This document shows, one piece after another, positions 1-45,549 of a stretch of 64,000 bases of DNA; position 1 is the stretch's first letter, and every line of letters starts with the position of its first letter. Source of the DNA: Yuukianura sp. NJ FZ-2021 (Eukaryota); the NCBI GenBank assembly GCA_046563655.1, contig CM102287.1, positions 558,001 through 622,000 of the forward strand, written 5' to 3'. A model generated the notes under the pieces. The model was not told the origin of the DNA and did no database searches. It saw only the letters and a list, made by a program, of their open reading frames with translations. Position numbers and translations under genes: made by a program.

Positions 1-1
1 C

Positions 2-8045: not shown

Positions 8046-8287
8046 TCTAAGAAGATAAATAAAAGGAATTTCAACAATTCCAGTTTCCTAACCTTAACGT
8101 CCAAGTTGTATAAGGTAGGTGACCCATAAATCTTCGGGTCAATCACCCCTCTAGTATTAGGGTCGGACCAGTTCCTCTCACAATCCCAAAACTTTAAAAT
8201 CTCTAATGCCCTCTTCCGGAGGCATGGGGTATACTCCAAAATAAAATTGACAACGAGCCTTAGGCTGCTGGCCCGGTCAGATGGCAT
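8042..8287 (-). CDS. Possible 81-aa upstream ORF whose stop overlaps the MMP start (ATGA)
   Basis: Listed in the ORF track; TGA at 8044-8042 overlaps ATG at 8045-8043. No recognisable motif, and its 3' end doubles as a polypyrimidine tract, so it may be non-coding. Confidence 0.25.
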   Translation of the reverse strand: MPSDRASSLRLVVNFILEYTPCLRKRALEILKFWDCERNWSDPNTRGVIDPKIYGSPTLYNLDVKVRKLELLKFLLFIFLE

Positions 8288-9106: not shown

Positions 9107-9125
9107 AATCCTGTCACGGTCGCCA
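9107..9125 (-). promoter_or_regulatory. Primer-binding site complementary to the tRNA-Arg(TCG) 3' end
   Basis: Minus strand reads TGGCGACCGTGACAGGATT, 2 nt after the LTR-terminal CA. It matches the insect tRNA-Arg 3' end as I recall it (AATCCTGTCACGGTCG-CCA), the PBS type used by 412/mdg1-like elements. Confidence 0.9.
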
Positions 9126-9127
9126 GT

Positions 9128-10238
9128 TGAAACCTCTCCCATCTCTCACTCTAACTATCATCGTATCATCATCTAATCTACATTCTCCTACGCTATCAAT
9201 GGCGATAGAGAAATAATCAATCAATCTAACGATAATCCATAATCATAAATATCCAATAAAAAAAAGAGAAAGAACGGAATACCTATTCCTCATGAAGTTG
9301 CTCCCTAACTGATCTATGTTAGAACGATGACCTACTAGTCTAGCACTAGTCCTGGGGTTTCCTAAGTTCTTGGATTGGTTGGTGGAAGTCGGTAGGAATG
9401 AAAGTGAAAGTAGCTACACTTCAATGCTCTTTAAACATTTGTGGGCATAACCCAGCAGGAGGACCTGAGTACTTTTACTAGTAAAGTGCTGTGGCTTTAC
9501 ATACCTGAGGTTTTGGCCTGGCCTTGGCGCTACCCCTTACTGATGTTTGTATTGACCTCTCGACCTCTCCTTGGGTTGGCTGGAGACTTTGGTTGGTGGT
9601 GGCACTCCCGGGTTGACCCACGGTGGCTGGAGCGTCTCGTTGGAAGTTAGAAGTTGAAAGAAGTGAAGAAAAGAAATAGAAGTGAAAGTAGTTGCTTTTA
9701 ATTTAGACTTAAGGGCCAGGCTGGCCGAGTGCCTACTAGAAGTTAAGAGTTAAGTAAAAGCTACCGGACAACTGACCAAGAGGTCGGACTACCGATCCTC
9801 TATTTATCCCTAAAGATTAGACGATCTGAACATGCAAGAACATGATCTTCGAACTCATTAACTAATAAACATGTCAAATTAATCTACACTTTGTAACTAC
9901 AAAGTTTCAAAATCATCAAGTTTTCTAGTCTTTTTCTTATCTATGTTCTTACCAAAAAGACATAAACTTTGTCTTAGAATTTGAATTAGTAATGCTAACT
10001 AAGTGAAACTTAAGTCACGTCAGATTACTCATGACTTGACTTTTACTGTTGATTGCGAAAAGTCATAAACTTTTCGCAGTTGATAAGGGTGATCAGTCAG
10101 CACCCTGGGGTCGTCTCCCTCCTGATTAGGGAACACGCGAAAAAGGAATGAACTAATTCATTCCCTTCTCCTGTGCTCCAGTGAGAAATCTGCCAATCAA
10201 TACTTTAAAATTGATTGACAGCTTTCTCCACTGTTACA
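9128..10238 (-). repeat. 5' LTR, 1111 bp
   Basis: Minus-strand termini TGTAACAG...GGTTTCA; bounded by the PBS on one side and satellite sequence on the other. The partner LTR is not in the window. Confidence 0.88.
9697..9807 (-). promoter_or_regulatory. Candidate LTR core promoter and poly(A) signal
   Basis: Minus strand has a TATA-like ATAAATA (9807-9801), a TCAGTT initiator about 30 nt downstream (9775-9770), and ATTAAA (9702-9697). Confidence 0.55.
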
Positions 10239-13200
10239 ACATCAAAATCGAACATTCAGCATCATTTGTTATTTTGATTAAAATTTTTAGGAAATACTTT
10301 TTTATGTCATACTACCACCTTGCACTTCCAATAAAGCACACCTGAATAACTGGTGTTCAACAATAATCTGGAATTATATTTTAGCCCAACTCCACTATGC
10401 AACAAGTGCATAAATCTAACTGTCATTTTGGTATAAACTAATGTGGGAACTATACAACGAAGTTTTAAACATACTGAAAAATGGAATTTATGCCTTGTTA
10501 TCGCTTATAACCATCTTCATGGAACGCATCTAATAAAGGTCCACTTTGTCGTAGTGCATCAACGACTATTACACACGGTGAACCACTTGTTGTCAGCCTT
10601 CATCTTTGAGCACAAAGGAGAAGTGCCGGTGAAATGACAAGCTCGCCCTCACTACAGATACCTGCCAGTACTCATTTTGACACTACGAATCACAATGACT
10701 CCGACGGCAATGGAACTTCAGGGGATCCCATTATTACATTTTCTAAATCAAAATCGAACATTCAGCATTATTTGTTATTTTGATTAAAATTTTTAGGAAA
10801 TACTTTTTTATGTCATACTACCACCTTGCACTTCCAATAAAGCACACCTGAATAACTGGTGTTCAACAATAATCTGGAATTATATTTTAGCCCAACTCCA
10901 CTATGCAACAAGTGCATAAATCTAACTGTCATTTTGGTATAAACTAATGTGGGAACTATACAACGAAGTTTTAAACATACTGAAAAGTGGAATTTATGCC
11001 TTGTTATCGCTTATAACCATCTTCAAATAACGCATCTAATACCGGTCCACTTTGTCGTAGTGCATCAACGACTATTACACACGGTGAACCACTTGTTGTC
11101 AGCCTTCATTTTTGAGCACAAAGGAGAAGTGCCGGTGAAATGACAAGCTCGCCCTCACTACAGATACCAACCAGTACTCATTTTGACACGATGAATCACA
11201 ATGACTCCGACGGCAATGGAACTTCAGGGGATCCCATTATTACATTTTCTAAATCAAAATCGAACATTCTGCATTATTTGTTATTTTGAGTAAAATTGTT
11301 AGAAAAGACTTTTTAATGTCATACTACCACCTTGCACTTCCAATAAAGCACACCTGAATAACTGGTGTTCAACAATAATCTGGAATTATATTTTAGCCCA
11401 ACTCCACTATGCAACAAGTGCATAAATCTAACTGTCATTTTGGTATAAACTAATGTGGGAACTATACAACGAAGTTTTAAACATACTGAAAAATGGAATT
11501 TATGCCTTGTTATCGCTTATAACCATCTGCAAGGAACGCATCTAATACCGGTCCACTTTGTCGTAGTGCATCAACGACTATTACACACGGTGAACCACTT
11601 GTTGTCAGCCTTCATTTTTGAGCACAAAGGAGAAGTGCCGGTGAAATGACAAGCTCGCCCTCACTACAGATACCAACCAGTACTCATTTTGACACGATGA
11701 ATCACAATGACTCCGACGGCAATGGAACTTCAGGGGTTCCCATTATTACATTTTCTACATCAAAATCGAACATTCAGCATTATTTGTTATTTTGATTAAA
11801 ATTTTTAGGAAATACTTTTTTATGTCATACTACCACCTTGCACTTCCAATAAAGCACACCTGAATAACTGGTGTTCAACAATAATCTGGAATTATATTTT
11901 AGCCCAACTCCACTATGCAACAAGTGCATAAATCTAACTGTCATTTTGGTATAAACTAATGTGGGAACTATACAACGAAGTTTTAAACATACTGAAAAAT
12001 GGAATTTATGCCTTGTTATCGCTTATAACCATCTTCATGGAACGCATCTAATAAAGGTCCACTTTGTCGTGGTGCATCAACGACTATTACACACGGTGAA
12101 CCACTTGTTGTCAGCCTTAATTTTTGAGCACAAAGGAGAAGTGCCGGTGAAATGACAAGCTCGCAGTCACTACAGTTACCAACCAGTACTCATTTTGACA
12201 CTACGAATCACAATGACTCCGACGGCAATGGAACTTCAGGGGATCCCATTATTACATTTTCTAAATCAAAATCGAACATTCAGCATTATTTGTTATTTTG
12301 ATTAAAATTGTTTGAAAAGACTTTTTTGTCATACTACCACCTTGCACTTCCAATAAAGCACACCTGAATAACTGGTGTTCAACAATAATCTGGAATTATA
12401 TTTTAGCCCAACTCCACTATGCAACAAGTGCATAAATCTAACTGTCATTTTGGTATAAACTAATGTGGGAACTATACAACGAAGTTTTAAACATACTGAA
12501 AAGTGGAATTTATGCCTTGTTATCGCTTATAACCATCTTCAAATAACGCATCTAATACCGGTCCACTTTGTCGTAGTGCATCAACGACTATTACACACGG
12601 TGAACCACTTGTTGTCAGCCTTCATCTTTGAGCACAAAGGAGAAGTGCCGGTGAAATGACAAGCTCTCCCTCACTACAGATACCAACCAGTACTCATTTT
12701 GACACGATGAATCACAATGACTCCGACGGCAATGGAACTTCAGGGGATCCCATTATTACATTTTCTAAATCAAAATCGAACATTCTGCATTATTTGTTAT
12801 TTTGAGTAAAATTGTTAGAAAAGACTTTTTAATGTCATACTACCACCTTGCACTTCCAATAAAGCACACCTGAATAACTGGTGTTCAACAATAATCTGGA
12901 ATTATATTTTAGCCCAACTCCACTATGCAACAAGTGCATAAATCTAACTGTCATTTTGGTATAAACTAATGTGGGAACTATACAACGAAGTTTTAAACAT
13001 ACTGAAAAATGGAATTTATGCCTTGTTATCGCTTATAACCATCTGCAAGGAACGCATCTAATACCGGTCCACTTTGTCGTAGTGCATCAACGACTATTAC
13101 ACACGGTGAACCACTTGTTGTCAGCCTTCATTTTTGAGCACAAAGGAGAAGTGCCGGTGAAATGACAAGCTCGCCCTCACTACAGATACCAACCAGTACT

Positions 13201-16200
13201 CATTTTGACACGATGAATCACAATGACTCCGACGGCAATGGAACTTCAGGGGTTCCCATTATTACATTTTCTACATCAAAATCGAACATTCAGCATTATT
13301 TGTTATTTTGATTAAAATTTTTAGGAAATACTTTTTTATGTCATACTACCACCTTGCACTTCCAATAAAGCACACCTGAATAACTGGTGTTCAACAATAA
13401 TCTGGAATTATATTTTAGCCCAACTCCACTATGCAACAAGTGCATAAATCTAACTGTCATTTTGGTATAAACTAATGTGGGAACTATACAACGAAGTTTT
13501 AAACATACTGAAAAATGGAATTTATGCCTTGTTATCGCTTATAACCATCTTCATGGAACGCATCTAATAAAGGTCCACTTTGTCGTAGTGCATCAACGAC
13601 TATTACACACGGTGAACCACTTGTTGTCAGCCTTCATCTTTGAGCACAAAGGAGAAGTGCCGGTGAAATGACAAGCTCGCCCTCACTACAGATACCTGCC
13701 AGTACTCATTTTGACACTACGAATCACAATGACTCCGACGGCAATGGAACTTCAGGGGATCCCATTATTACATTTTCTAAATCAAAATCGAACATTCAGC
13801 ATTATTTGTTATTTTTATTAAAATTTTTAGGAAATACTTTTTTATGTCATACTACCACCTTGCACTTCCAATAAAGCACACCTGAATAACTGGTGTTCAA
13901 CAATAATCTGGAATTATATTTTAGCCCAACTCCACTATGCAACAAGTGCATAAATCTAACTGTCATTTTGGTATAAACTAATGTGGGAACTATACAACGA
14001 AGTTTTAAACATACTGAAAAGTGGAATTTATGCCTTGTTATCGCTTATAACCATCTGCAAGGAACGCATCTAATACCGGTCCACTTTGTCGTAGTGCATC
14101 AACGACTATTACACACGGTGAACCACTTGTTGTCAGCCTTCATTTTTGAGCACAAAGGAGAAGTGCCGGTGAAATGACAAGCTCGCCCTCACTACAGATA
14201 CCAACCAGTACTCATTTTGACACGATGAATCACAATGACTCCGACGGCAATGGAACTTCAGGGGATCCCATTATTACATTTTCTAAATCAAAATCGAACA
14301 TTCAGCATTATTTGTTATTTTTATTAAAATTTTTAGGAAATACTTTTTTATGTCATACTACCACCTTGCACTTCCAATAAAGCACACCTGAATAACTGGT
14401 GTTCAACAATAATCTGGAATTATATTTTAGCCCAACTCCACTATGCAACAAGTGCATAAATCTAACTGTCATTTTGGTATAAACTAATGTGGGAACTATA
14501 CAACGAAGTTTTAAACATACTGAAAAATGGAATTTATGCCTTGTTATCGCTTATAACCATCTGCAAGGAACGCATCTAATACCGGTCCACTTTGTCGTAG
14601 TGCATCAACGACTATTACACACGGTGAACCACTTGTTGTCAGCCTTCATTTTTGAGCACAAAGGAGAAGTGCCGGTGAAATGACAAGCTCGCCCTCACTA
14701 CAGATACCAACCAGTACTCATTTTGACACGATGAATCACAATGACTCCGACGGCAATGGAACTTCAGGGGTTCCCATTATTACATTTTCTACATCAAAAT
14801 CGAACATTCAGCATTATTTGTTATTTTGATTAAAATTTTTAGGAAATACTTTTTTATGTCATACTACCACCTTGCACTTCCAATAAAGCACACCTGAATA
14901 ACTGGTGTTCAACAATAATCTGGAATTATATTTTAGCCCAACTCCACTATGCAACAAGTGCATAAATCTAACTGTCATTTTGGTATAAACTAATGTGGGA
15001 ACTATACAACGAAGTTTTAAACATACTGAAAAATGGAATTTATGCCTTGTTATCGCTTATAACCATCTTCATGGAACGCATCTAATAAAGGTCCACTTTG
15101 TCGTAGTGCATCAACGACTATTACACACGGTGAACCACTTGTTGTCAGCCTTAATTTTTGAGCACAAAGGAGAAGTGCCGGTGAAATGACAAGCTCGCCC
15201 TCACTACAGTTACCAACCAGTACTCATTTTGACACTACGAATCACAATGACTCCGACGGCAATGGAACTTCAGGGGATCCCATTATTACATTTTCTAAAT
15301 CAAAATCGAACATTCAGCATTATTTGTTATTTTGATTAAAATTGTTTGAAAAGACTTTTTTGTCATACTACCACCTTGCACTTCCAATAAAGCACACCTG
15401 AATAACTGGTGTTCAACAATAATCTGGAATTATATTTTAGCCCAACTCCACTATGCAACAAGTGCATAAATCTAACTGTCATTTTGGTATAAACTAATGT
15501 GGGAACTATACAACGAAGTTTTAAACATACTGAAAAGTGGAATTTATGCCTTGTTATCGCTTATAACCATCTTCAAATAACGCATCTAATACCGGTCCAC
15601 TTTGTCGTAGTGCATCAACGACTATTACACACGGTGAACCACTTGTTGTCAGCCTTCATCTTTGAGCACAAAGGAGAAGTGCCGGTGAAATGACAAGCTC
15701 TCCCTCACTACAGATACCAACCAGTACTCATTTTGACACGATGAATCACAATGACTCCGACGGCAATGGAACTTCAGGGGTTCCCATTATTTCATTTTCT
15801 ACATCAAAATCGAACATTCAGCATTATTTGTTATTTTGATTAAAATTTTTAGGAAATACTTTTTTATGTCATACTACCACCTTGCACTTCCAATAAAGCA
15901 CACCTGAATAACTGGTGTTCAACAATAATCTGGAATTATATTTTAGCCCAACTCCACTATGCAACAAGTGCATAAATCTAACTGTCATTTTGGTATAAAC
16001 TAATGTGGGAACTATACAACGAAGTTTTAAACATACTGAAAAGTGGACTTTATGCCTTGTTATCGCTTATAACCATCCTCAAGTAACGCATCTAATACCG
16101 GTCCACTTTGTCGTAGTGCATCAACGACTATTACACACGGTGAACCACTTGTTGTCAGCCTTCATCTTTGAGCACAAAGGAGAAGTGCCGGTGAAATGAC

Positions 16201-16534
16201 AAGCTCGCCCTCACTACAGATACCTGCCAGTACTCATTTTGACACTACGAATCACAATGACTCCGACGGCAATGGAACTTCAGGGGATCCCATTATTACA
16301 TTTTCTAAATCAAAATCGAACATTCAGCATTATTTGTTATTTTGATTAAAATTTTTAGGAAATACTTTTTTATGTCATACTACCACCTTGCACTTCCAAT
16401 AAAGCACACCTGAATAACTGGTGTTCAACAATAATCTGGAATTATATTTTAGCCCAACTCCACTATGCAACAAGTGCATAAATCTAACTGTCATTTTGGT
16501 ATAAACTAATGTGGGAACTATACAACGAAGTTTT
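10239..16534. repeat. Satellite A (506-bp monomer, 504-bp variant), left block
   Basis: Near-identical head-to-tail units; the ORF-track starts recur every 506 or 504 bp. Confidence 0.99.
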
Positions 16535-16557
16535 TATCAGGAAATCTGATTCCCTCA

Positions 16558-16596
16558 TGCGTGAGGCCACGGGTTCGATTCCCGTCTGAGCCCCCA
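16558..16596 (+). other. DNA copy of a tRNA 3' half (positions 38-76 including CCA), tRNA-Pro-like; extended PBS
   Basis: T-GCGTG-AGGCC-ACGGG-TTCGATT-CCCGT-CTGAGCC-C-CCA parses as anticodon 3' stem, variable loop, perfect T arm, acceptor strand and CCA. The ending GAGCCCCCA is as in tRNA-Pro. No 5' half is present. Confidence 0.8.
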
Positions 16597-16598
16597 GT

Positions 16599-17954
16599 TG
16601 TAAGGATACGAATTTTCCAGTGGCCAATTAAGGGCTACAAATCCGGCTCTAATCTGAAACCCGCCCTTTCCGTTCGCTATCCCTTACGTTTACTTGACGG
16701 GCCCTTAGTAGTTTCACCTTAAGAAAGGGTTTCTTCTTTCTTAAGGGCCGATAGAAGGCACTTCACACTCCAGAAGGGTCAATAACCTGAGAATTTGCAC
16801 GTAGATTTGGCCTCTCTCCTCGCAGTCCAATGACCTCGACCTCTGACCTTTGACTTTTGACTTTCAACAAAGAAAATGACAACTCGACTCGTGAAACCGT
16901 TAACCAATCAGAAAGCTCTCCAGTTAATCAATCTTAATTGCTAAATGACTGAAAACTCCAATTAGTGACTCGTTAATTTAAATTGAATTTGAAATGATTG
17001 AAAGAAATTGAGAAATTCCAGAAGTCAGCTGATTCGAAGATAAATAAACGTAAACACGAATAACCTTTGACCCAATTGAGTGTGTGAGCAAAACAGAGTT
17101 CAAATACCAGAGACAATCCTAATTAGAAAACCCGCGTACGCGTGCGCGGCGTTAATTGATTGAATTAATTGGGAAAAACCGATAAAAGCTGAATCAAACT
17201 GAGAAAAACCGATTAAAACTGATTTAAATTGATGGAAAACTGATTTAAAACAATTACAAGTTAATGCGCGTTGAATGAAACAAAAAGGAAATGGAATTAC
17301 GCGCAGTTCCCGTCACTGAAGGTGAACAAAAGAACAGAAAACCGAAAACGCGAAAGAAAACGTGAAAACTTTAACGACGAAAACTTTAACGACGAAAGAA
17401 TTTAACGTGAAAACTTTAAGTGGTTCTCCGGATCACCCCGAGCAACCAAACCCTCGGCAGTATGCTGGAAGCCAGCAACACCCTGCCAATACCTGTAGTG
17501 GTCCCCGGTCGTCCTTCAAGCATCAATTCAGCAGCGTTTCCCCCTGGTTTACTGTGTACTGGAAAAGGCATGCATGGCAGTGGAAAGTCAGGCTAAGGTC
17601 TACTTTCTAGGCCAAAATGCATGCTTGTCCATACACAATGAACCATTAATTAAGGTAGTTTAGGTAGTTGATAGGTAACGGAACTTTAGTGATTTGAGTA
17701 GTTTAGGATTTTAGGTAATTTTTAGGATATTTTAGTTTTAGGTAATTAGCGTTAATTAGTTGGATAATTAGTTTTTAAGTTTTGTCTATCTGTTTGCTTG
17801 GAAAAGTACTGGGTGCTGCGGCGGTAAAGTGCGGGAACAGTTTTGGTTTAAATTTGAGTGAAATCTTTCCAGAGGTTTCACTCAAATTCTCACTAGATGG
17901 CGTATGCCGTCCAGGGCTCTTTGTGAAGTGACGCTCTGTTTTTGTGCTCTCACA
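16599..17954 (-). repeat. Single LTR of a second family, 1356 bp
   Basis: Minus-strand termini TGTGAG...CTTACA, with a PPT immediately upstream and a 2-nt spacer plus PBS/tRNA copy immediately downstream. Confidence 0.78.
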
Positions 17955-17955
17955 A

Positions 17956-17967
17956 CTTCCCCCCTCC
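17956..17967 (-). promoter_or_regulatory. Polypurine tract
   Basis: Minus strand GGAGGGGGGAAG, 1 nt before TGTGAG. Confidence 0.8.
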
Positions 17968-18208
17968 AATTGGCCCGAAAGTCATCGTGTTGAGAAATAT
18001 TATTTAGCAGACTCTAATACTATTTACAAAGTAACTGTGACTCTAAATTGTTTGGAAAAATTTAAGTAATTCGTACTTAGAACTGAATTTATAATTGAAT
18101 AAATTGAAAAACTTGAAGAATCCTCTTGAGTACTAACTTAGAAGGCAAGGAAACAAGATAGAATTAACTGGAAAACAATGACAATTAAGTGGAAAGGAAA
18201 CGGCGTCT

Positions 18209-18868
18209 TCAGTCGTCTTGATCCGAATCCTTGAACCCAAATTTCTCTTTCTTCATCATCCGAATTTTGGAATTGATTCTGAAGTTGTCCCTTCCCTCTT
18301 TCTCCAGTACTTCCAAACCCTCAAATTGAGTCGGCTCCTCGATTCCACGGTTGAGTGCAGGATGAAGAAAGACGCTGATTCCATCGTCGAAGTTCCACTT
18401 CTCCAGAAGATCATCATCTCCAACGTCGACTCGGGAAAGTTTTGGACGTCGTCTGGGAGTCTCAGCCTGGGTCATCCCCTTCTCCTTCTTGATTTTCACC
18501 CATGGAATGATTGGGGCCACTTCTGGAACTTCTAGGCGAGTGATCGGGGCTTCTGGGCGAGTGATCGGTTCTTCTGGACGAGTGATGGTGGCTTCTGGGC
18601 GAGTGATAGTGGCCTCTGGCTTCTTCTTTGGAGGAGACTTGGAAGTTCTTGGAACCGTCATTGGAACTGGAAGGTCGGCTGAAGTAATGGTAGATGATGG
18701 AATCTGCTTCACCGGAACTGACAACTTGGACTGAACTGTCTTTGAGTTTTTGGCCGTGGTCAACTTGAGGGGCTGAGCAAAGAGGTCGAACTGTGGAGGA
18801 CTTGGAGAACGACATCGAGCTTTCTTGGCAATCTGCCTCCGTTCCAGTGCTGCCTTCTGCTTCGCCAT
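18209..18868 (-). CDS. 219-aa basic, Pro-rich ORF with 7-aa tandem repeats, upstream of the PPT; function unknown
   Basis: Listed in the ORF track; repeats TRPEATI/TRPEATI/TRPEEPI/TRPEAPI come from 21-bp units; K/R clusters. Confidence 0.55.
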   Translation of the reverse strand: MAKQKAALERRQIAKKARCRSPSPPQFDLFAQPLKLTTAKNSKTVQSKLSVPVKQIPSSTITSADLPVPMTVPRTSKSPPKKKPEATITRPEATITRPEEPITRPEAPITRLEVPEVAPIIPWVKIKKEKGMTQAETPRRRPKLSRVDVGDDDLLEKWNFDDGISVFLHPALNRGIEEPTQFEGLEVLEKEGRDNFRINSKIRMMKKEKFGFKDSDQDD

Positions 18869-18889
18869 TTGAGCTGTGGCTGATTCCCT

Positions 18890-19241
18890 GAATCAGAGAG
18901 ATTCACGCAGAGGTTCACGCAGTCGCCAGAGTACACCACCTCCGTTTTTACCAGTTGTTGACACTCACGTTTCTGAATTAAATGCTGTCGATGCCATGCG
19001 CAACGACGTAGCCAAACTTAAAGAACAACTCTCCGGAGTTAATGAACTTAAAGATGATTTGAAAGTAATGATGGCACAGTTGGCTTCTTTGTCGTTTCCG
19101 GTTTACGAGTCGAGGAATCCACCTCGAGTCCTTACCGAGGGGAATTCGGATGAACTTTCGAGTGACGATGAACCCTCGAGTCGCTACCGTCGGGATTCTT
19201 CGGTCAGGCGACCGCCAAAGTCGGAGAAGCAGAACGAATTT
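18890..19241 (+). pseudogene. Oppositely oriented open fragment, possibly a Gag N-terminus (coiled-coil), truncated by the satellite
   Basis: Open frame containing MRNDVAKLKEQLSGVNELKDDLKVMMAQLASL (heptad pattern) that reads into satellite sequence. Gag identity is inferred only. Confidence 0.3.
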
Positions 19242-22200
19242 AGTGGAATTTATGCCTTGTTATCGCTTATAACCATCTGCAAGGAACGCATCTAATACCG
19301 GTCCACTTTGTCGTAGTGCATCAACGACTATTACACACGGTGAACCACTTGTTGTCAGCCTTCATTTTTGAGCACAAAGGAGAAGTGCCGGTGAAATGAC
19401 AAGCTCGCCCTCACTACAGATACCAACCAGTACTCATTTTGACACGATGAATCACAATGACTCCGACGGCAATGGAACTTCAGGGGTTCCCATTATTACA
19501 TTTTCTACATCAAAATCGAACATTCAGCATTATTTGTTATTTTGATTAAAATTTTTAGGAAATACTTTTTTATGTCATACTACCACCTTGCACTTCCAAT
19601 AAAGCACACCTGAATAACTGGTGTTCAACAATAATCTGGAATTATATTTTAGCCCAACTCCACTATGCAACAAGTGCATAAATCTAACTGTCATTTTGGT
19701 ATAAACTAATGTGGGAACTATACAACGAAGTTTTAAACATACTGAAAAATGGAATTTATGCCTTGTTATCGCTTATAACCATCTTCATGGAACGCATCTA
19801 ATAAAGGTCCACTTTGTCGTAGTGCATCAACGACTATTACACACGGTGAACCACTTGTTGTCAGCCTTCATCTTTGAGCACAAAGGAGAAGTGCCGGTGA
19901 AATGACAAGCTCTCCCTCACTACAGATACCAACCAGTACTCATTTTGACACGATGAATCACAATGACTCCGACGGCAATGGAACTTCAGGGGTTCCCATT
20001 ATTACATTTTCTACATCAAAATCGAACATTCAGCATTATTTGTTATTTTGATTAAAATTTTTAGGAAATACTTTTTTATGTCATACTACCACCTTGCACT
20101 TCCAATAAAGCACACCTGAATAACTGGTGTTCAACAATAATCTGGAATTATATTTTAGCCCAACTCCACTATGCAACAAGTGCATAAATCTAACTGTCAT
20201 TTTGGTATAAACTAATGTGGGAACTATACAACGAAGTTTTAAACATACTGAAAAATGGAATTTATGCCTTGTTATCGCTTATAACCATCTTCATGGAACG
20301 CATCTAATAAAGGTCCACTTTGTCGTAGTGCATCAACGACTATTACACACGGTGAACCACTTGTTGTCAGCCTTAATTTTTGAGCACAAAGGAGAAGTGC
20401 CGGTGAAATGACAAGCTCGCCCTCACTACAGTTACCAACCAGTACTCATTTTGACACTACGAATCACAATGACTCCGACGGCAATGGAACTTCAGGGGAT
20501 CCCATTATTACATTTTCTAAATCAAAATCGAACATTCAGCATTATTTGTTATTTTGATTAAAATTGTTTGAAAAGACTTTTATGTCATACTACCACCTTG
20601 CACTTCCAATAAAGCACACCTGAATAACTGGTGTTCAACAATAATCTGGAATTATATTTTAGCCCAACTCCACTATGCAACAAGTGCATAAATCTAACTG
20701 TCATTTTGGTATAAACTAATGTGGGAACTATACAACGAAGTTTTAAACATACTGAAAAGTGGACTTTATGCCTTGTTATCGCTTATAACCATCCTCAAGT
20801 AACGCATCTAATACCGGTCCACTTTGTCGTAGTGCATCAACGACTATTACACACGGTGAACCACTTGTTGTCAGCCTTCATCTTTGAGCACAAAGGAGAA
20901 GTGCCGGTGAAATGACAAGCTCGCCCTCACTACAGTTACCAACCAGTACTCATTTTGACACTACGAATCACAATGACTCCGACGGCAATGGAACTTCAGG
21001 GGTTCCCATTATTACATTTTCTACATCAAAATCGAACATTCAGCATTATTTGTTATTTTGATTAAAATTTTTAGGAAATACTTTTTTATGTCATACTACC
21101 ACCTTGCACTTCCAATAAAGCACACCTGAATAACTGGTGTTCAACAATAATCTGGAATTATATTTTAGCCCAACTCCACTATGCAACAAGTGCATAAATC
21201 TAACTGTCATTTTGGTATAAACTAATGTGGGAACTATACAACGAAGTTTTAAACATACTGAAAAATGGAATTTATGCCTTGTTATCGCTTATAACCATCT
21301 TCATGGAACGCATCTAATAAAGGTCCACTTTGTCGTAGTGCATCAACGACTATTACACACGGTGAACCACTTGTTGTCAGCCTTCATCTTTGAGCACAAA
21401 GGAGAAGTGCCGGTGAAATGACAAGCTCTCCCTCACTACAGATACCAACCAGTACTCATTTTGACACGATGAATCACAATGACTCCGACGGCAATGGAAC
21501 TTCAGGGGTTCCCATTATTACATTTTCTACATCAAAATCGAACATTCAGCATTATTTGTTATTTTGATTAAAATTTTTAGGAAATACTTTTTTATGTCAT
21601 ACTACCACCTTGCACTTCCAATAAAGCACACCTGAATAACTGGTGTTCAACAATAATCTGGAATTATATTTTAGCCCAACTCCACTATGCAACAAGTGCA
21701 TAAATCTAACTGTCATTTTGGTATAAACTAATGTGGGAACTATACAACGAAGTTTTAAACATACTGAAAAATGGAATTTATGCCTTGTTATCGCTTATAA
21801 CCATCTTCATGGAACGCATCTAATAAAGGTCCACTTTGTCGTAGTGCATCAACGACTATTACACACGGTGAACCACTTGTTGTCAGCCTTAATTTTTGAG
21901 CACAAAGGAGAAGTGCCGGTGAAATGACAAGCTCGCCCTCACTACAGTTACCAACCAGTACTCATTTTGACACTACGAATCACAATGACTCCGACGGCAA
22001 TGGAACTTCAGGGGATCCCATTATTACATTTTCTAAATCAAAATCGAACATTCAGCATTATTTGTTATTTTGATTAAAATTGTTTGAAAAGACTTTTATG
22101 TCATACTACCACCTTGCACTTCCAATAAAGCACACCTGAATAACTGGTGTTCAACAATAATCTGGAATTATATTTTAGCCCAACTCCACTATGCAACAAG

Positions 22201-25200
22201 TGCATAAATCTAACTGTCATTTTGGTATAAACTAATGTGGGAACTATACAACGAAGTTTTAAACATACTGAAAAGTGGACTTTATGCCTTGTTATCGCTT
22301 ATAACCATCCTCAAGTAACGCATCTAATACCGGTCCACTTTGTCGTAGTGCATCAACGACTATTACACACGGTGAACCACTTGTTGTCAGCCTTCATCTT
22401 TGAGCACAAAGGAGAAGTGCCGGTGAAATGACAAGCTCGCCCTCACTACAGATACCTGCCAGTACTCATTTTGACACTACGAATCACAATGACTCCGACG
22501 GCAATGGAACTTCAGGGGATCCCATTATTACATTTTCTAAATCAAAATCGAACATTCAGCATTATTTGTTATTTTGATTAAAATTTTTAGGAAATACTTT
22601 TTTATGTCATACTACCACCTTGCACTTCCAATAAAGCACACCTGAATAACTGGTGTTCAACAATAATCTGGAATTATATTTTAGCCCAACTCCACTATGC
22701 AACAAGTGCATAAATCTAACTGTCATTTTGGTATAAACTAATGTGGGAACTATACAACGAAGTTTTAAACATACTGAAAAGTGGAATTTATGCCTTGTTA
22801 TCGCTTATAACCATCTGCAAGGAACGCATCTAATACCGGTCCACTTTGTCGTAGTGCATCAACGACTATTACACACGGTGAACCACTTGTTGTCAGCCTT
22901 CATTTTTGAGCACAAAGGAGAAGTGCCGGTGAAATGACAAGCTCGCCCTCACTACAGATACCAACCAGTACTCATTTTGACACGATGAATCACAATGACT
23001 CCGACGGCAATGGAACTTCAGGGGTTCCCATTATTACATTTTCTACATCAAAATCGAACATTCAGCATTATTTGTTATTTTGATTAAAATTTTTAGGAAA
23101 TACTTTTTTATGTCATACTACCACCTTGCACTTCCAATAAAGCACACCTGAATAACTGGTGTTCAACAATAATCTGGAATTATATTTTAGCCCAACTCCA
23201 CTATGCAACAAGTGCATAAATCTAACTGTCATTTTGGTATAAACTAATGTGGGAACTATACAACGAAGTTTTAAACATACTGAAAAATGGAATTTATGCC
23301 TTGTTATCGCTTATAACCATCTTCATGGAACGCATCTAATAAAGGTCCACTTTGTCGTAGTGCATCAACGACTATTACACACGGTGAACCACTTGTTGTC
23401 AGCCTTAATTTTTGAGCACAAAGGAGAAGTGCCGGTGAAATGACAAGCTCGCCCTCACTACAGTTACCAACCAGTACTCATTTTGACACTACGAATCACA
23501 ATGACTCCGACGGCAATGGAACTTCAGGGGATCCCATTATTACATTTTCTAAATCAAAATCGAACATTCAGCATTATTTGTTATTTTGATTAAAATTGTT
23601 TGAAAAGACTTTTTTGTCATACTACCACCTTGCACTTCCAATAAAGCACACCTGAATAACTGGTGTTCAACAATAATCTGGAATTATATTTTAGCCCAAC
23701 TCCACTATGCAACAAGTGCATAAATCTAACTGTCATTTTGGTATAAACTAATGTGGGAACTATACAACGAAGTTTTAAACATACTGAAAAGTGGAATTTA
23801 TGCCTTGTTATCGCTTATAACCATCTTCAAATAACGCATCTAATACCGGTCCACTTTGTCGTAGTGCATCAACGACTATTACACACGGTGAACCACTTGT
23901 TGTCAGCCTTCATCTTTGAGCACAAAGGAGAAGTGCCGGTGAAATGACAAGCTCGCCCTCACTACAGATACCAACCAGTACTCATTTTGACACGATGAAT
24001 CACAATGACTCCGACGGCAATGGAACTTCAGGGGTTCCCATTATTACATTTTCTACATCAAAATCGAACATTCAGCATTATTTGTTATTTTGATTAAAAT
24101 TTTTAGGAAATACTTTTTTATGTCATACTACCACCTTGCACTTCCAATAAAGCACACCTGAATAACTGGTGTTCAACAATAATCTGGAATTATATTTTAG
24201 CCCAACTCCACTATGCAACAAGTGCATAAATCTAACTGTCATTTTGGTATAAACTAATGTGGGAACTATACAACGAAGTTTTAAACATACTGAAAAGTGG
24301 AATTTATGCCTTGTTATCGCTTATAACCATCCTCAAGTAACGCATCTAATACCGGTCCACTTTGTCGTAGTGCATCAACGACTATTACACACGGTGAACC
24401 ACTTGTTGTCAGCCTTCATCTTTGAGCACAAAGGAGAAGTGCCGGTGAAATGACAAGCTCGCCCTCACTACAGATACCTGCCAGTACTCATTTTGACACT
24501 ACGAATCACAATGACTCCGACGGCAATGGAACTTCAGGGGATCCCATTATTACATTTTCTAAATCAAAATCGAACATTCAGCATTATTTGTTATTTTGAT
24601 TAAAATTTTTAGGAAATACTTTTTTATGTCATACTACCACCTTGCACTTCCAATAAAGCACACCTGAATAACTGGTGTTCAACAATAATCTGGAATTATA
24701 TTTTAGCCCAACTCCACTATGCAACAAGTGCATAAATCTAACTGTCATTTTGGTATAAACTAATGTGGGAACTATACAACGAAGTTTTAAACATACTGAA
24801 AAGTGGAATTTATGCCTTGTTATCGCTTATAACCATCTTCAAATAACGCATCTAATACCGGTCCACTTTGTCGTAGTGCATCAACGACTATTACACACGG
24901 TGAACCACTTGTTGTCAGCCTTCATTTTTGAGCACAAAGGAGAAGTGCCGGTGAAATGACAAGCTCGCCCTCACTACAGATACCAACCAGTACTCATTTT
25001 GACACGATGAATCACAATGACTCCGACGGCAATGGAACTTCAGGGGATCCCATTATTACATTTTCTAAATCAAAATCGAACATTCAGCATTATTTGTTAT
25101 TTTGATTAAAATTTTTAGGAAATACTTTTTTATGTCATACTACCACCTTGCACTTCCAATAAAGCACACCTGAATAACTGGTGTTCAACAATAATCTGGA

Positions 25201-28200
25201 ATTATATTTTAGCCCAACTCCACTATGCAACAAGTGCATAAATCTAACTGTCATTTTGGTATAAACTAATGTGGGAACTATACAACGAAGTTTTAAACAT
25301 ACTGAAAAATGGAATTTATGCCTTGTTATCGCTTATAACCATCTGCAAGGAACGCATCTAATACCGGTCCACTTTGTCGTAGTGCATCAACGACTATTAC
25401 ACACGGTGAACCACTTGTTGTCAGCCTTCATTTTTGAGCACAAAGGAGAAGTGCCGGTGAAATGACAAGCTCGCCCTCACTACAGATACCAACCAGTACT
25501 CATTTTGACACGATGAATCACAATGACTCCGACGGCAATGGAACTTCAGGGGTTCCCATTATTACATTTTCTACATCAAAATCGAACATTCAGCATTATT
25601 TGTTATTTTGATTAAAATTTTTAGGAAATACTTTTTTATGTCATACTACCACCTTGCACTTCCAATAAAGCACACCTGAATAACTGGTGTTCAACAATAA
25701 TCTGGAATTATATTTTAGCCCAACTTCACTATGCAACAAGTGCATAAATCTAACTGTCATTTTGGTATAAACTAATGTGGGAACTATACAACGAAGTTTT
25801 AAACATACTGAAAAGTGGAATTTATGCCTTGTTATCGCTTATAACCATCTTCAAATAACGCATCTAATACCGGTCCACTTTGTCGTAGTGCATCAACGAC
25901 TATTACACACGGTGAACCACTTGTTGTCAGCCTTCATCTTTGAGCACAAAGGAGAAGTGCCGGTGAAATGACAAGCTCGCCCTCACTACAGATACCAACC
26001 AGTACTCATTTTGACACGATGAATCACAATGACTCCGACGGCAATGGAACTTCAGGGGTTCCCATTATTACATTTTCTACATCAAAATCGAACATTCAGC
26101 ATTATTTGTTATTTTGATTAAAATTTTTAGGAAATACTTTTTTATGTCATACTACCACCTTGCACTTCCAATAAAGCACACCTGAATAACTGGTGTTCAA
26201 CAATAATCTGGAATTATATTTTAGCCCAACTCCACTATGCAACAAGTGCATAAATCTAACTGTCATTTTGGTATAAACTAATGTGGGAACTATACAACGA
26301 AGTTTTAAACATACTGAAAAGTGGAATTTATGCCTTGTTATCGCTTTTAACCATCTGCAAGGAACGCATCTAATACCGGTCCACTTTGTCGTAGTGCATC
26401 AACGACTATTACACACGGTGAACCACTTGTTGTCAGCCTTCATTTTTGAGCACAAAGGAGAAGTGCCGGTGAAATGACAAGCTCGCCCTCACTACAGATA
26501 CCAACCAGTACTCATTTTGACACGATGAATCACAATGACTCCGACGGCAATGGAACTTCAGGGGTTCCCATTATTACATTTTCTACATCAAAATCGAACA
26601 TTCAGCATTATTTGTTATTTTGATTAAAATTTTTAGGAAATACTTTTTTATGTCATACTACCACCTTGCACTTCCAATAAAGCACACCTGAATAACTGGT
26701 GTTCAACAATAATCTGGAATTATATTTTAGCCCAACTCCACTATGCAACAAGTGCATAAATCTAACTGTCATTTTGGTATAAACTAATGTGGGAACTATA
26801 CAACGAAGTTTTAAACATACTGAAAAGTGGAATTTATGCCTTGTTATCGCTTATAACCATCTTCAAATAACGCATCTAATACCGGTCCACTTTGTCGTAG
26901 TGCATCAACGACTATTACACACGGTGAACCACTTGTTGTCAGCCTTCATCTTTGAGCACAAAGGAGAAGTGCCGGTGAAATGACAAGCTCGCCCTCACTA
27001 CAGATACCAACCAGTACTCATTTTGACACGATGAATCACAATGACTCCGACGGCAATGGAACTTCAGGGGTTCCCATTATTACATTTTCTACATCAAAAT
27101 CGAACATTCAGCATTATTTGTTATTTTGATTAAAATTTTTAGGAAATACTTTTTTATGTCATACTACCACCTTGCACTTCCAATAAAGCACACCTGAATA
27201 ACTGGTGTTCAACAATAATCTGGAATTATATTTTAGCCCAACTCCACTATGCAACAAGTGCATAAATCTAACTGTCATTTTGGTATAAACTAATGTGGGA
27301 ACTATACAACGAAGTTTTAAACATACTGAAAAGTGGAATTTATGCCTTGTTATCGCTTATAACCATCTGCAAGGAACGCATCTAATACCGGTCCACTTTG
27401 TCGTAGTGCATCAACGACTATTACACACGGTGAACCACTTGTTGTCAGCCTTCATTTTTGAGCACAAAGGAGAAGTGCCGGTGAAATGACAAGCTCGCCC
27501 TCACTACAGATACCAACCAGTACTCATTTTGACACGATGAATCACAATGACTCCGACGGCAATGGAACTTCAGGGGTTCCCATTATTACATTTTCTACAT
27601 CAAAATCGAACATTCAGCATTATTTGTTATTTTGATTAAAATTTTTAGGAAATACTTTTTTATGTCATACTACCACCTTGCACTTCCAATAAAGCACACC
27701 TGAATAACTGGTGTTCAACAATAATCTGGAATTATATTTTAGCCCAACTCCACTATGCAACAAGTGCATAAATCTAACTGTCATTTTGGTATAAACTAAT
27801 GTGGGAACTATACAACGAAGTTTTAAACATACTGAAAAATGGAATTTATGCCTTGTTATCGCTTATAACCATCTTCATGGAACGCATCTAATAAAGGTCC
27901 ACTTTGTCGTAGTGCATCAACGACTATTACACACGGTGAACCACTTGGTGTCAGCCTTAATTTTTGAGCACAAAGGAGAAGTGCCGGTGAAATGACAAGC
28001 TCGCCCTCACTACAGTTACCAACCAGTACTCATTTTGACACTACGAATCACAATGACTCCGACGGCAATGGAACTTCAGGGGATCCCATTATTACATTTT
28101 CTAAATCAAAATCGAACATTCAGCATTATTTGTTATTTTGATTAAAATTGTTTGAAAAGACTTTTTTGTCATACTACCACCTTGCACTTCCAATAAAGCA

Positions 28201-31200
28201 CACCTGAATAACTGGTGTTCAACAATAATCTGGAATTATATTTTAGCCCAACTCCACTATGCAACAAGTGCATAAATCTAACTGTCATTTTGGTATAAAC
28301 TAATGTGGGAACTATACAACGAAGTTTTAAACATACTGAAAAGTGGAATTTATGCCTTGTTATCGCTTATAACCATCTTCAAATAACGCATCTAATACCG
28401 GTCCACTTTGTCGTAGTGCATCAACGACTATTACACACGGTGAACCACTTGTTGTCAGCCTTCATCTTTGAGCACAAAGGAGAAGTGCCGGTGAAATGAC
28501 AAGCTCGCCCTCACTACAGATACCAACCAGTACTCATTTTGACACGATGAATCACAATGACTCCGACGGCAATGGAACTTCAGGGGATCCCATTATTACA
28601 TTTTCTACATCAAAATCGAACATTCAGCATTATTTGTTATTTTGATTAAAATTTTTAGGAAATACTTTTTTATGTCATACTACCACCTTGCACTTCCAAT
28701 AAAGCACACCTGAATAACTGGTGTTCAACAATAATCTGGAATTATATTTTAGCCCAACTCCACTATGCAACAAGTGCATAAATCTAACTGTCATTTTGGT
28801 ATAAACTAATGTGGGAACTATACAACGAAGTTTTAAACATACTGAAAAATGGAATTTATGCCTTGTTATCGCTTATAACCATCTTCATGGAACGCATCTA
28901 ATAAAGGTCCACTTTGTCGTAGTGCATCAACGACTATTACACACGGTGAACCACTTGTTGTCAGCCTTAATTTTTGAGCACAAAGGAGAAGTGCCGGTGA
29001 AATGACAAGCTCGCCCTCACTACAGATACCAACCAGTACTCATTTTGACACTACGAATCACAATGACTCCGACGGCAATGGAACTTCAGGGGTTCCCATT
29101 ATTACATTTTCTAAATCAAAATCGAACATTCAGCATTATTTGTTATTTTGATTAAAATTGTTTGAAAAGACTTTTTTGTCATACTACCACCTTGCACTTC
29201 CAATAAAGCACACCTGAATAACTGGTGTTCAACAATAATCTGGAATTATATTTTAGCCCAACTCCACTATGCAACAAGTGCATAAATCTAACTGTCATTT
29301 TGGTATAAACTAATGTGGGAACTATACAACGAAGTTTTAAACATACTGAAAAGTGGAATTTATGCCTTGTTATCGCTTATAACCATCTTCAAATAACGCA
29401 TCTAATACCGGTCCACTTTGTCGTAGTGCATCAACGACTATTACACACGGTGAACCACTTGTTGTCAGCCTTCATTTTTGAGCACAAAGGAGAAGTGCCG
29501 GTGAAATGACAAGCTCGCCCTCACTACAGATACCAACCAGTACTCATTTTGACACGATGAATCACAATGACTCCGACGGCAATGGAACTTCAGGGGATCC
29601 CATTATTACATTTTCTAAATCAAAATCGAACATTCAGCATTATTTGTTATTTTGATTAAAATTGTTAGAAAAGACTTTTTAATGTCATACTACCACCTTG
29701 CACTTCCAATAAAGCACACCTGAATAACTGGTGTTCAACAATAATCTGGAATTATATTTTAGCCCAACTCCACTATGCAACAAGTGCATAAATCTAACTG
29801 TCATTTTGGTATAAACTAATGTGGGAACTATACAACGAAGTTTTAAACATACTGAAAAATGGAATTTATGCCTTGTTATCGCTTATAACCATCTGCAAGG
29901 AACGCATCTAATACCGGTCCACTTTGTCGTAGTGCATCAACGACTATTACACACGGTGAACCACTTGTTGTCAGCCTTCATTTTTGAGCACAAAGGAGAA
30001 GTGCCGGTGAAATGACAAGCTCGCCCTCACTACAGATACCAACCAGTACTCATTTTGACACGATGAATCACAATGACTCCGACGGCAATGGAACTTCAGG
30101 GGTTCCCATTATTACATTTTCTACATCAAAATCGAACATTCAGCATTATTTGTTATTTTGATTAAAATTTTTAGGAAATACTTTTTTATGTCATACTACC
30201 ACCTTGCACTTCCAATAAAGCACACCTGAATAACTGGTGTTCAACAATAATCTGGAATTATATTTTAGCCCAACTCCACTATGCAACAAGTGCATAAATC
30301 TAACTGTCATTTTGGTATAAACTAATGTGGGAACTATACAACGAAGTTTTAAACATACTGAAAAGTGGAATTTATGCCTTGTTATCGCTTATAACCATCT
30401 GCAAGGAACGCATCTAATACCGGTCCACTTTGTCGTAGTGCATCAACGACTATTACACACGGTGAACCACTTGTTGTCAGCCTTCATTTTTGAGCACAAA
30501 GGAGAAGTGCCGGTGAAATGACAAGCTCGCCCTCACTACAGATACCAACCAGTACTCATTTTGACACGATGAATCACAATGACTCCGACGGCAATGGAAC
30601 TTCAGGGGATCCCATTATTACATTTTCTAAATCAAAATCGAACATTCTGCATTATTTGTTATTTTGAGTAAAATTGTTAGAAAAGACTTTTTAATGTCAT
30701 ACTACCACCTTGCACTTCCAATAAAGCACACCTGAATAACTGGTGTTCAACAATAATCTGGAATTATATTTTAGCCCAACTCCACTATGCAACAAGTGCA
30801 TAAATCTAACTGTCATTTTGGTATAAACTAATGTGGGAACTATACAACGAAGTTTTAAACATACTGAAAAATGGAATTTATGCCTTGTTATCGCTTATAA
30901 CCATCTGCAAGGAACGCATCTAATACCGGTCCACTTTGTCGTAGTGCATCAACGACTATTACACACGGTGAACCACTTGTTGTCAGCCTTCATTTTTGAG
31001 CACAAAGGAGAAGTGCCGGTGAAATGACAAGCTCGCCCTCACTACAGATACCAACCAGTACTCATTTTGACACGATGAATCACAATGACTCCGACGGCAA
31101 TGGAACTTCAGGGGTTCCCATTATTACATTTTCTACATCAAAATCGAACATTCAGCATTATTTGTTATTTTGATTAAAATTTTTAGGAAATACTTTTTTA

Positions 31201-34200
31201 TGTCATACTACCACCTTGCACTTCCAATAAAGCACACCTGAATAACTGGTGTTCAACAATAATCTGGAATTATATTTTAGCCCAACTCCACTATGCAACA
31301 AGTGCATAAATCTAACTGTCATTTTGGTATAAACTAATGTGGGAACTATACAACGAAGTTTTAAACATACTGAAAAATGGAATTTATGCCTTGTTATCGC
31401 TTATAACCATCTTCATGGAACGCATCTAATACCGGTCCACTTTGTCGTAGTGCATCAACGACTATTACACACGGTGAACCACTTGTTGTCAGCCTTCATC
31501 TTTGAGCACAAAGGAGAAGTGCCGGTGAAATGACAAGCTCGCCCTCACTACAGATACCAACCAGTACTCATTTTGACACTATGAATCACAATGACTCCGA
31601 CGGCAATGGAACTTCAGGGGTTCCCATTATTACATTTTCTAAATCAAAATCGAACATTCAGCATTATTTGTTATTTTGATTAAAATTTTTAGGAAATACT
31701 TTTTTATGTCATACTACCACCTTGCACTTCCAATAAAGCACACCTGAATAACTGGTGTTCAACAATAATCTGGAATTATATTTTAGCCCAACTCCACTAT
31801 GCAACAAGTGCATAAATCTAACTGTCATTTTGGTATAAACTAATGTGGGAACTATACAACGAAGTTTTAAACATACTGAAAAATGGAATTTATGCCTTGT
31901 TATCGCTTATAACCATCTGCAAGGAACGCATCTAATACCGGTCCACTTTGTCGTAGTGCATCAACGACTATTACACACGGTGAACCACTTGTTGTCAGCC
32001 TTCATTTTTGAGCACAAAGGAGAAGTGCCGGTGAAATGACAAGCTCGCCCTCACTACAGTTACCAACCAGTACTCATTTTGACACTACGAATCACAATGA
32101 CTCCGACGGCAATGGAACTTCAGGGGATCCCATTATTACATTTTCTAAATCAAAATCGAACATTCAGCATTATTTGTTATTTTGATTAAAATTTTTAGGA
32201 AATACTTTTTTATGTCATACTACCACCTTGCACTTCCAATAAAGCACACCTGAATAACTGGTGTTCAACAATAATCTGGAATTATATTTTAGCCCAACTC
32301 CACTATGCAACAAGTGCATAAATCTAACTGTCATTTTGGTATAAACTAATGTGGGAACTATACAACGAAGTTTTAAACATACTGAAAAATGGAATTTATG
32401 CCTTGTTATCGCTTATAACCATCTTCATGGAACGCATCTAATAAAGGTCCACTTTGTCGTAGTGCATCAACGACTATTACACACGGTGAACCACTTGTTG
32501 TCAGCCTTAATTTTTGAGCACAAAGGAGAAGTGCCGGTGAAATGACAAGCTCGCCCTCACTACAGTTACCAACCAGTACTCATTTTGACACTACGAATCA
32601 CAATGACTCCGACGGCAATGGAACTTCAGGGGATCCCATTATTACATTTTCTAAATCAAAATCGAACATTCAGCATTATTTGTTATTTTGATTAAAATTG
32701 TTTGAAAAGACTTTTTTGTCATACTACCACCTTGCACTTCCAATAAAGCACACCTGAATAACTGGTGTTCAACAATAATCTGGAATTATATTTTAGCCCA
32801 ACTCCACTATGCAACAAGTGCATAAATCTAACTGTCATTTTGGTATAAACTAATGTGGGAACTATACAACGAAGTTTTAAACATACTGAAAAGTGGAATT
32901 TATGCCTTGTTATCGCTTATAACCATCTTCAAATAACGCATCTAATACCGGTCCACTTTGTCGTAGTGCATCAACGACTATTACACACGGTGAACCACTT
33001 GTTGTCAGCCTTCATTTTTGAGCACAAAGGAGAAGTGCCGGTGAAATGACAAGCTCGCCCTCACTACAGATACCAACCAGTACTCATTTTGACACGATGA
33101 ATCACAATGACTCCGACGGCAATGGAACTTCAGGGGTTCCCATTATTACATTTTCTACATCAAAATCGAACATTCAGCATTATTTGTTATTTTGATTAAA
33201 ATTTTTAGGAAATACTTTTTTATGTCATACTACCACCTTGCACTTCCAATAAAGCACACCTGAATAACTGGTGTTCAACAATAATCTGGAATTATATTTT
33301 AGCCCAACTCCACTATGCAACAAGTGCATAAATCTAACTGTCATTTTGGTATAAACTAATGTGGGAACTATACAACGAAGTTTTAAACATACTGAAAAAT
33401 GGAATTTATGCCTTGTTATCGCTTATAACCATCTTCATGGAACGCATCCAATAAAGGCCCACTTTGTCGTAGTGCATCAACGACTATTACACACGGTGAA
33501 CCACTTGTTGTCAGCCTTAATTTTTGAGCACAAAGGAGAAGTGCCGGTGAAATGACAAGCTCGCCCTCACTACAGTTACCAACCAGTACTCATTTTGACA
33601 CGATGAATCACAATGACTCCGACGGCAATGGAACTTCAGGGGTTCCCATTATTACATTTTCTACATCAAAATCGAACATTCAGCATTATTTGTTATTTTG
33701 ATTAAAATTTTTAGGAAATACTTTTTTATGTCATACTACCACCTTGCACTTCCAATAAAGCACACCTGAATAACTGGTGTTCAACAATAATCTGGAATTA
33801 TATTTTAGCCCAACTCCACTATGCAACAAGTGCATAAATCTAACTGTCATTTTGGTATAAACTAATGTGGGAACTATACAACGAAGTTTTAAACATACTG
33901 AAAAATGGAATTTATGCCTTGTTATCGCTTATAACCATCTTCATGGAACGCATCTAATACCGGTCCACTTTGTCGTAGTGCATCAACGACTATTACACAC
34001 GGTGAACCACTTGTTGTCAGCCTTCATTTTTGAGCACAAAGGAGAAGTGCCGGTGAAATGACAAGCTCGCCCTCACTACAGATACCAACCAGTACTCATT
34101 TTGACACGATGAATCACAATGACTCCGACGGCAATGGAACTTCAGGGGTTCCCATTATTACATTTTCTACATCAAAATCGAACATTCAGCATTATTTGTT

Positions 34201-45548: not shown

Positions 45549-45549
45549 C

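Follow-up and report, generated by a model that had tools for sequence, protein, structure and literature searches.

What process leaves a single long terminal repeat (LTR) with a polypurine tract (PPT) on one side and a long piece of tRNA complement on the other? The question is raised by an insert in satellite DNA within the 64,000-nt stretch analysed here (the window). Read in the sense of the element (minus strand), the insert presents the PPT, one spacer base, the LTR, the dinucleotide AC and 39 nt complementary to a tRNA. A sequence-only reading of the locus had described this arrangement, with the PPT 5' of one LTR and a 2-nt spacer plus 39 nt of tRNA complement, from CCA to position 38, on its 3' side, and the sequence bears the description out. 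Its added statement that a normal provirus never has both around one LTR was too strong, because tandem elements do; what survives of it is that here tRNA, not leader, follows the primer-binding site (PBS). The feature is as described between 16558 and 17967, but it is only part of an object that extends to 19241 and includes an inverted leader and fillers (Table 1). We consider it probable that the insert is the fossil of an aberrant reverse-transcription product of a tRNA-Pro-primed LTR retroelement, end-joined into a break in the satellite without the help of integrase.

The insert and its satellite target

The window consists of eukaryotic repeat DNA. Using self-BLAST together with monomer comparison, we delimited 2707 bp of non-satellite sequence at 16535-19241, lying within an array of a 506-bp satellite. 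Self-BLAST revealed this satellite; Tandem Repeats Finder, which covers periods up to 500, does not list it. Contigs of four public sequencing runs contain the uninterrupted monomer, in which 16534 is joined to 19244 with 15 letters between them, and comparison with the neighbouring monomers indicates that at the insert the monomer lacks 13-15 bp (AAACATACTGAAA plus or minus 2). Comparison of the satellite monomers at both junctions revealed no target-site duplication on either side. Neither end of the insert is an LTR terminus, and fillers are found at two junctions. The hallmarks of integrase, a target-site duplication and LTR termini at both ends, are thus absent, the insert ending in a filler on one side and a truncated leader on the other. 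What is present instead corresponds to end-joining capture: cDNA-only nucleotides (tRNA positions 38-58 and the PBS, located after a PPT-flanked LTR), fillers of 23 and 11 nt, and the target loss of 13-15 bp. Without a target-site duplication, with a few bases of target lost, and with fillers and ends other than LTR termini, the insertion is shown not to be the work of integrase, and the claim of placement without integrase is strengthened by the larger extent of the insert, its inverted leader, its fillers and the target deletion. No RNA run containing the insert is listed among the matching sequencing runs.

Table 1 Features of the insert and its flanks, in window coordinates.
Feature	Positions	Strand	Remarks
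Left flank, 506-bp satellite	10241..16534	.	Ends ...GTTTT; self-BLAST, junction monomer comparison
23-nt filler, satellite / tRNA copy	16535..16557	.	Holds CTGATTCCCT (16546-16555), identical to 18880-18889
tRNA-Pro positions 38-58, extra 21 nt, tRNA sense	16558..16578	+	Missing from standard family copies
tRNA positions 59-76 including CCA, complement of the 18-nt PBS	16579..16596	+	Joint 16579|18895, alignment
Spacer AC (GT on the plus strand) between LTR and PBS	16597..16598	-	Sequence read
LTR, 1356 bp, TGTGAG...CCTTACA (element sense)	16599..17954	-	Multi-copy; sequence read and contig boundaries
One spacer base (17955) and 12-nt PPT GGAGGGGGGAAG (17956-17967, element sense)	17955..17967	-	
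3' internal region, 916 bp	17968..18883	-	Multi-copy contigs reach 18883
11-nt junction TTCCCTGAATC, internal region / inverted leader	18884..18894	.	Breakpoints from contig end 18883 and joint 18895
Leader and 5' ORF, 347 nt, inverted relative to LTR	18895..19241	+	Cut off by satellite; X3 record 24
Right flank, 506-bp satellite again	19242..39853	.	Resumes at AGTGGAATTT; self-BLAST, monomer comparison

The retroelement part of the insert has the expected architecture around its LTR, which carries TG...CA termini, has the PPT directly upstream and is followed downstream, after the 2-nt spacer, by a tRNA-complementary PBS. The LTR boundaries are shared among copies, since contigs of runs X3 and X4 have loose ends at 16597/16598 and X3 record 20 departs from the window at 17954, and in the run contigs the depth of the LTR is several-fold that of the internal parts. 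The LTR, PPT and internal region are joined in contigs of X1 (17820-18167, 2 differences) and X2 (17938-18167, 0 differences); because the depth of these bridging contigs is about that of other internal parts, the PPT side represents the normal 3' end of the family. The internal region contains an ORF of ~220 aa on the minus strand, from the ATG at 18868 to a stop at 18209, and inside it a 21-nt tandem repeat of four units (18529-18633) encodes a heptapeptide close to TRPEAPI. A contig of X1 skips 42 nt within this array, which suggests that the array varies in copy number. Homologue searches with the two ORFs of the insert, one in the 3' internal region and one in the leader, returned no homologues, and neither ORF contains a Pfam family, the sole match being sub-threshold and coiled-coil-like. 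By these comparisons the element is an unclassified LTR retroelement, its ORFs having neither homologues nor a Pfam family. A further X1 contig, 333 nt long and ~10% diverged, connects 19228 in the leader with 16685 in the LTR, the two lying on opposite strands, and thus represents one more family copy that has undergone rearrangement or deletion.

The tRNA copy and the primer-binding site of the family

In tRNA numbering, positions 38-73 correspond to 16558-16593 and the CCA to 16594-16596, with A58 at 16578 and position 59 at 16579. The T arm forms a perfect tRNA-type stem-loop, with an 18-nt match (E = 0.0011) to this arm in the tRNA/tmRNA clan. ARAGORN called 0 whole tRNA genes in the window, as only the 3' part of a tRNA is present. 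An exact 35-nt word of the tRNA part had 0 matches in metagenome contigs, whereas a 25-nt word taken from the T arm and acceptor led there to four loci; all four are tRNA-Pro genes according to ARAGORN (three TGG, one CGG), and they come from the metagenome contigs, not from the host genome. When 16558-16593 is compared with these four genes, 35/36 bases are equal and position 42 is the sole mismatch, although outside the 25-nt search word only 11 positions (38-48) contribute to the comparison, 10/11 of which agree. The existence of a matching tRNA, on which the earlier proposal depended, is thereby supported through the agreement of the four metagenome tRNA-Pro genes at positions 38-73. None of the four loci encodes the CCA, and a T-run follows downstream, consistent with the earlier argument that CCA is added post-transcriptionally and that a mature primer was copied. 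The likeness ends exactly at position 38, gene positions 32-37 mismatching 16552-16557, and the copy stops before the anticodon, so that the anticodon is absent from the 39 nt. A discriminator C is generally a mark of eukaryotic tRNA-Pro. Judged by the T arm and the 35/36 agreement with tRNA-Pro genes, the 39-nt match is in excess of chance. Position 58 is copied as a plain A, with no miscopy. One contig of X3 agrees with the window as far as position 73, after which it reads TTGAGTC and a T-run; this contig looks like the tRNA gene itself.

The length of the PBS in other copies of the family can be read from contigs that cross from the PBS into the leader. The joint 16579|18895, on opposite strands, is present in one contig each of X2 (side 18) and X3 (side 49), X2 coming from the same sample as X1 and X3 from another study, where it is labelled as another organism. 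X3 record 24 (632 nt) runs along the window from 19236 to 18895, then through the 18 nt of 16579-16596, the spacer and the end of the LTR; its alignment covers 18895-19236, and beyond 19236 it has 100 further letters unlike the window. In element sense, the X2 and X3 contigs read LTR-AC-PBS-leader, with a PBS of 18 nt corresponding to tRNA positions 59-76. The tRNA complementarity after the LTR thus measures 39 nt here vs 18 nt in 2/2 contigs that cross the PBS-leader joint, a figure taken from two short contigs, neither of which is a full-length copy. Since these contigs pass from an 18-nt PBS straight into the leader, the extra 21 nt appear, as far as the data reach, to be private to this copy, and the family to have a PBS of classical length that ends before A58. 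This agrees with the earlier view that the long match is not element-encoded in the family. The same contigs place 18895 onward right after the PBS, which identifies 18895-19241 of the window as the leader of the family; in the insert, the base that comes next to the PBS in standard copies is also the first of this inverted leader.

The two junctions with fillers share sequence with each other, and one of them is complementary to part of the tRNA copy. The 10-mer of the 23-nt filler that recurs at the inversion junction (Table 1) was reached by 13/5000 shuffled fillers within 40 nt of that junction and by 14/300 anywhere in the insert, in a post hoc comparison, and the sharing is therefore only moderately improbable. 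A palindrome with 7-bp arms, CTGATTC-CCT-GAATCAG (18880-18896), encloses the 11-nt junction, whose putative breakpoint, 18883/18884, is where one contig ends. At the other junction, the last five filler bases, CCTCA (16553-16557), can pair with TGAGG (16562-16566), to which they are reverse-complementary and which corresponds to tRNA positions 42-46. The palindrome, the repeated 10-mer and the pairing 5-mer fit template switching or templated filler synthesis, whether by reverse transcriptase (RT) or by a repair polymerase. The filler was also considered as a miscopied 5' half of the tRNA and rejected as such, as nothing 5' of position 38 aligns except for a TGATTC hexamer that is displaced by 5 nt. 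The 18 nt before the leader (18877-18894) were rejected as a second PBS: their complement would put T at tRNA position 61, normally an invariant C, and so hardly resembles the 3' end of a tRNA.

The leader itself starts with a 12-nt tandem repeat (18897-18920), consisting of AGAGATTCACGC followed by AGAGGTTCACGC, and each unit contains TCACGCA. This heptamer is the exact complement of primer positions 38-44 as they stand in the fossil, including the isodecoder-specific position 42. Its match to the 21-nt extension is statistically weak, as 277/5000 shuffles reach it. The leader TCACGCA may be a second tRNA contact or the trace of an older read-through.

Origin of the insert and competing explanations

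The stop before m1A58 is described as defining the 18-nt primer copy (PMC8599865; PMC11251516); without m1A58, according to the same descriptions, the plus strand passes A58, its tail is non-complementary, and transfer and integration fail (PMC8599865; PMC11251516, Fig. 1A legend). The HIV-1 in vitro product 'P5' ends, by its figure legend, at the modified position 37 of tRNA-Lys3 (PMC13191261, Fig. 3B legend). A preprint gives m1G37 as typical of proline tRNAs and describes two group II intron RTs that miscopy at m1A58 (bioRxiv 10.1101/2023.12.09.569604). As to the fate of such products, Ty1 replication intermediates are described as being captured at yeast breaks by NHEJ with the 3' LTR as the hotspot, and 40/56 of the 3'-LTR inserts at these breaks contain cDNA-only nucleotides (PMC11372161).

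As a plausible route to the insert, the strand that reads internal region-PPT-LTR-AC-PBS-tRNA complement would be a plus-strand product made before the second strand transfer, in which 39 rather than 18 primer bases were copied. The plus strand would have copied a primer still attached to the minus strand, passing A58 on the way. The primer molecule was probably without m1A58: given the miscopying described at m1A58, and with position 58 read here as a plain A, a primer lacking this modification is the simpler reading. Copying would then have halted at position 38, just short of position 37, because of m1G37 or because the template was a 3' tRNA half that went no further. The resulting 21-nt tail would be unable to pair with the minus-strand PBS, so that the second strand transfer would fail. 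From the stuck product, template switches or the joining of fragments could give the inverted leader and the fillers that share the 10-mer with the inversion junction, and the product would finally be patched into a chromosomal break in the satellite.

A fuller version of this account takes the whole 2.7-kb insert as the outcome of one failed replication cycle, running from a tRNA-Pro lacking m1A58 through the stop at position 38, the failed transfer and the template switches to the satellite break; we put it forward tentatively and think it unlikely to hold in all its steps. If it were true, template switches would explain both the start of the leader right after the PBS and the repeated 10 nt of the filler. 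The insert would in that case be a natural chromosomal record of the position-37 stop, together with the sequence of the primer isodecoder that was used, and would hint at TCACGCA, present twice in the leader, as a candidate second tRNA-binding site of the family.

One alternative keeps the fossil but changes the reason for its end, in that a 3' tRNA half (~positions 38-76, produced by a cut in the anticodon loop), present as template, primer or cleavage remnant, would have allowed plus-strand run-off with no block at m1G37. Such halves begin at a point of the anticodon loop, between positions 37 and 38, that is exactly where the copy ends; moreover, the adjoining CCTCA of the filler (16553-16557), complementary to positions 42-46, resembles a turn-back at a free template end. 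However, A58 read-through would be needed all the same, an HIV-1 RT stop one base before modified position 37 is documented on tRNA-Lys3 (PMC13191261), and m1G37 is listed as typical of tRNA-Pro (bioRxiv 10.1101/2023.12.09.569604), and we regard run-off on a half molecule as a possible but rather improbable course of events. A block at m1G37 and a run-off on a 3' half would be predicted to leave an identical sequence, and both fit the copy equally well. Of the mechanism proposed in the sequence-only reading, the read-through past A58 accords with the 21 nt beyond the family PBS, whereas the stall at m1G37 is a step for which 3'-half run-off can be substituted equally well.

The remaining explanations do without an over-copied primer. 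An element-encoded long PBS is one of them, and another is a tandem-element or 1-LTR-circle junction (PPT-LTR-PBS-leader), which would account for the order of parts, as the succession of PPT, single LTR and PBS is typical of tandem elements and of 1-LTR circles that have integrated. But the contigs of two runs have an 18-nt PBS and then the leader (18895 onward), while here 21 nt of tRNA-Pro, filler and satellite come after the 18 nt, in the place of the leader. We consider both extremely unlikely, and the 1-LTR circle, tandem junction and long PBS that had been offered earlier as alternatives are contradicted by the LTR-AC-PBS-leader contigs of X2 and X3. An accident at the DNA level, in which an ordinary integrated copy later underwent inversion and deletion and an unrelated retro-copied tRNA fragment came to lie beside its LTR, or in which the element integrated next to a tRNA pseudogene, gains some appeal from the satellite locus, where rearrangements are common, and from the existence of another rearranged family copy (joint 16685|19228 in X1). 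It is nevertheless very improbable: nothing but the 2-nt spacer typical of the family separates the tRNA piece from the LTR, and the piece is oriented and placed in register like a PBS and carries a CCA that is absent from the genes, so that chance would have to place it exactly, and there is no target-site duplication on either side. An assembly artefact, i.e., a chimeric read join in a repeat-rich region, has to be weighed because none of the listed contigs of the four runs bridges the satellite-filler-tRNA-LTR succession (16534-16600) and the region sits among thousands of near-identical satellite monomers. Yet a chimera would not set a tRNA copy, CCA included, exactly in the register of the PBS and next to the family spacer, and X1 contains 0.63 of the sampled words of the insert, and we give an artefact hardly any credence. 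A LINE-type chimeric retrocopy was considered and rejected as well, the tRNA being antisense to the LTR transcript and U5 being present.

Relation to known systems and neighbouring elements

Capture of Ty1 cDNA at yeast breaks was reportedly observed in 1996 by Moore and Haber and by Teng et al., and in 1999 by Yu and Gabriel, and an older paper is said to deal with defective retrovirus DNA that includes tRNA read-through. The probable fossil shares an LTR followed by more than 18 nt of tRNA copy with the over-extended plus-strand strong-stop DNA of HIV-1, for which the P5 stop at ms2t6A37 and read-through in m1A58-deficient TRMT6 cells are described (PMC13191261; PMC8599865; PMC11251516). As in P5, as reported, the tRNA copy ends one base before position 37, a position that is modified in the HIV-1 case and is assumed to be modified here (PMC13191261). 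A further likeness to the over-extended HIV-1 DNA lies in the tail, which mismatches the genome, so that by the published description plus-strand transfer and integration fail (PMC8599865; PMC11251516). The HIV-1 cases, in contrast, are biochemical or cell-culture products made with tRNA-Lys3, whereas the present case is a chromosomal relic of an unclassified retroelement with tRNA-Pro. With Ty1 cDNA captured by NHEJ at yeast double-strand breaks, as outlined in PMC11372161, the insert has in common that it is centred on the 3' LTR, contains cDNA-only nucleotides, involves no integrase and has non-LTR ends. It differs in that the yeast breaks were induced in the laboratory, according to the same outline, while the present event is natural, lies in satellite and combines a primer copy of 39 nt with another fragment of the same element in inverted orientation.

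An LTR flanked by both a PPT and a PBS is likewise seen in tandem LTR elements and in 1-LTR circles after integration, but there the leader follows the PBS, whereas here 21 tRNA bases, filler and satellite follow it. Insertions of LINE-1 that are 5'-inverted arise by twin-priming. They resemble the insert, as they are described, in the inversion of the 5' piece relative to the 3' piece and in a short junction (PMC2912911). They differ in element class and enzyme, and here there is neither poly-A nor a target-site duplication, so that the comparison is an analogy only.

Each of the processes invoked is therefore already known, over-copying of the primer from HIV-1 in vitro and cDNA capture from Ty1 at yeast breaks, and what is new is a natural example that combines both. 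In the literature searched by title and start of the abstract, which leaves older subscription papers outside its coverage, we found no natural chromosomal fossil of an LTR with an over-copied tRNA, and no paper contained a 22-nt word from the tRNA part when the literature was searched for it. A natural relic of this kind would show that dead-end reverse-transcription products arise in vivo and can enter the germ line. It would also preserve 39 nt of the mature primer, from which the isodecoder can be read, and throw some indirect light on tRNA modification as a checkpoint in the replication of retroelements. Its value lies mainly in serving as a template for a systematic search, in which a genome-wide screen for an LTR plus more than 18 nt of tRNA could turn a single case into a countable class.

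Other retroelement pieces are present in the window. A Ty3/gypsy-type element at 930-6538 on the minus strand has an open gag of 518 aa (Retrotrans_gag, Ty3_capsid) and a pol of 1373 aa (RT, RNase H, integrase), and no LTR pair for it was found within 1-10300. A second piece, at 44283-46360 on the plus strand, comprises a gag-like frame of 421 aa (Ty3_capsid) and, after it and overlapping it, one of 330 aa for which Pfam gave no match. The gypsy gag is immediately preceded, on the same, minus strand, by an uninterrupted matrixin-type metalloprotease frame of 474 aa (6663-8087; Peptidase_M10, E = 6.9e-47), which also has a weak hemopexin match and may belong to the host, be a retrocopy or have been captured. 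From 49867 to the end of the window (64000) stretches another satellite, whose 411-bp unit is present in 34.4 copies with 97% matches (Tandem Repeats Finder).
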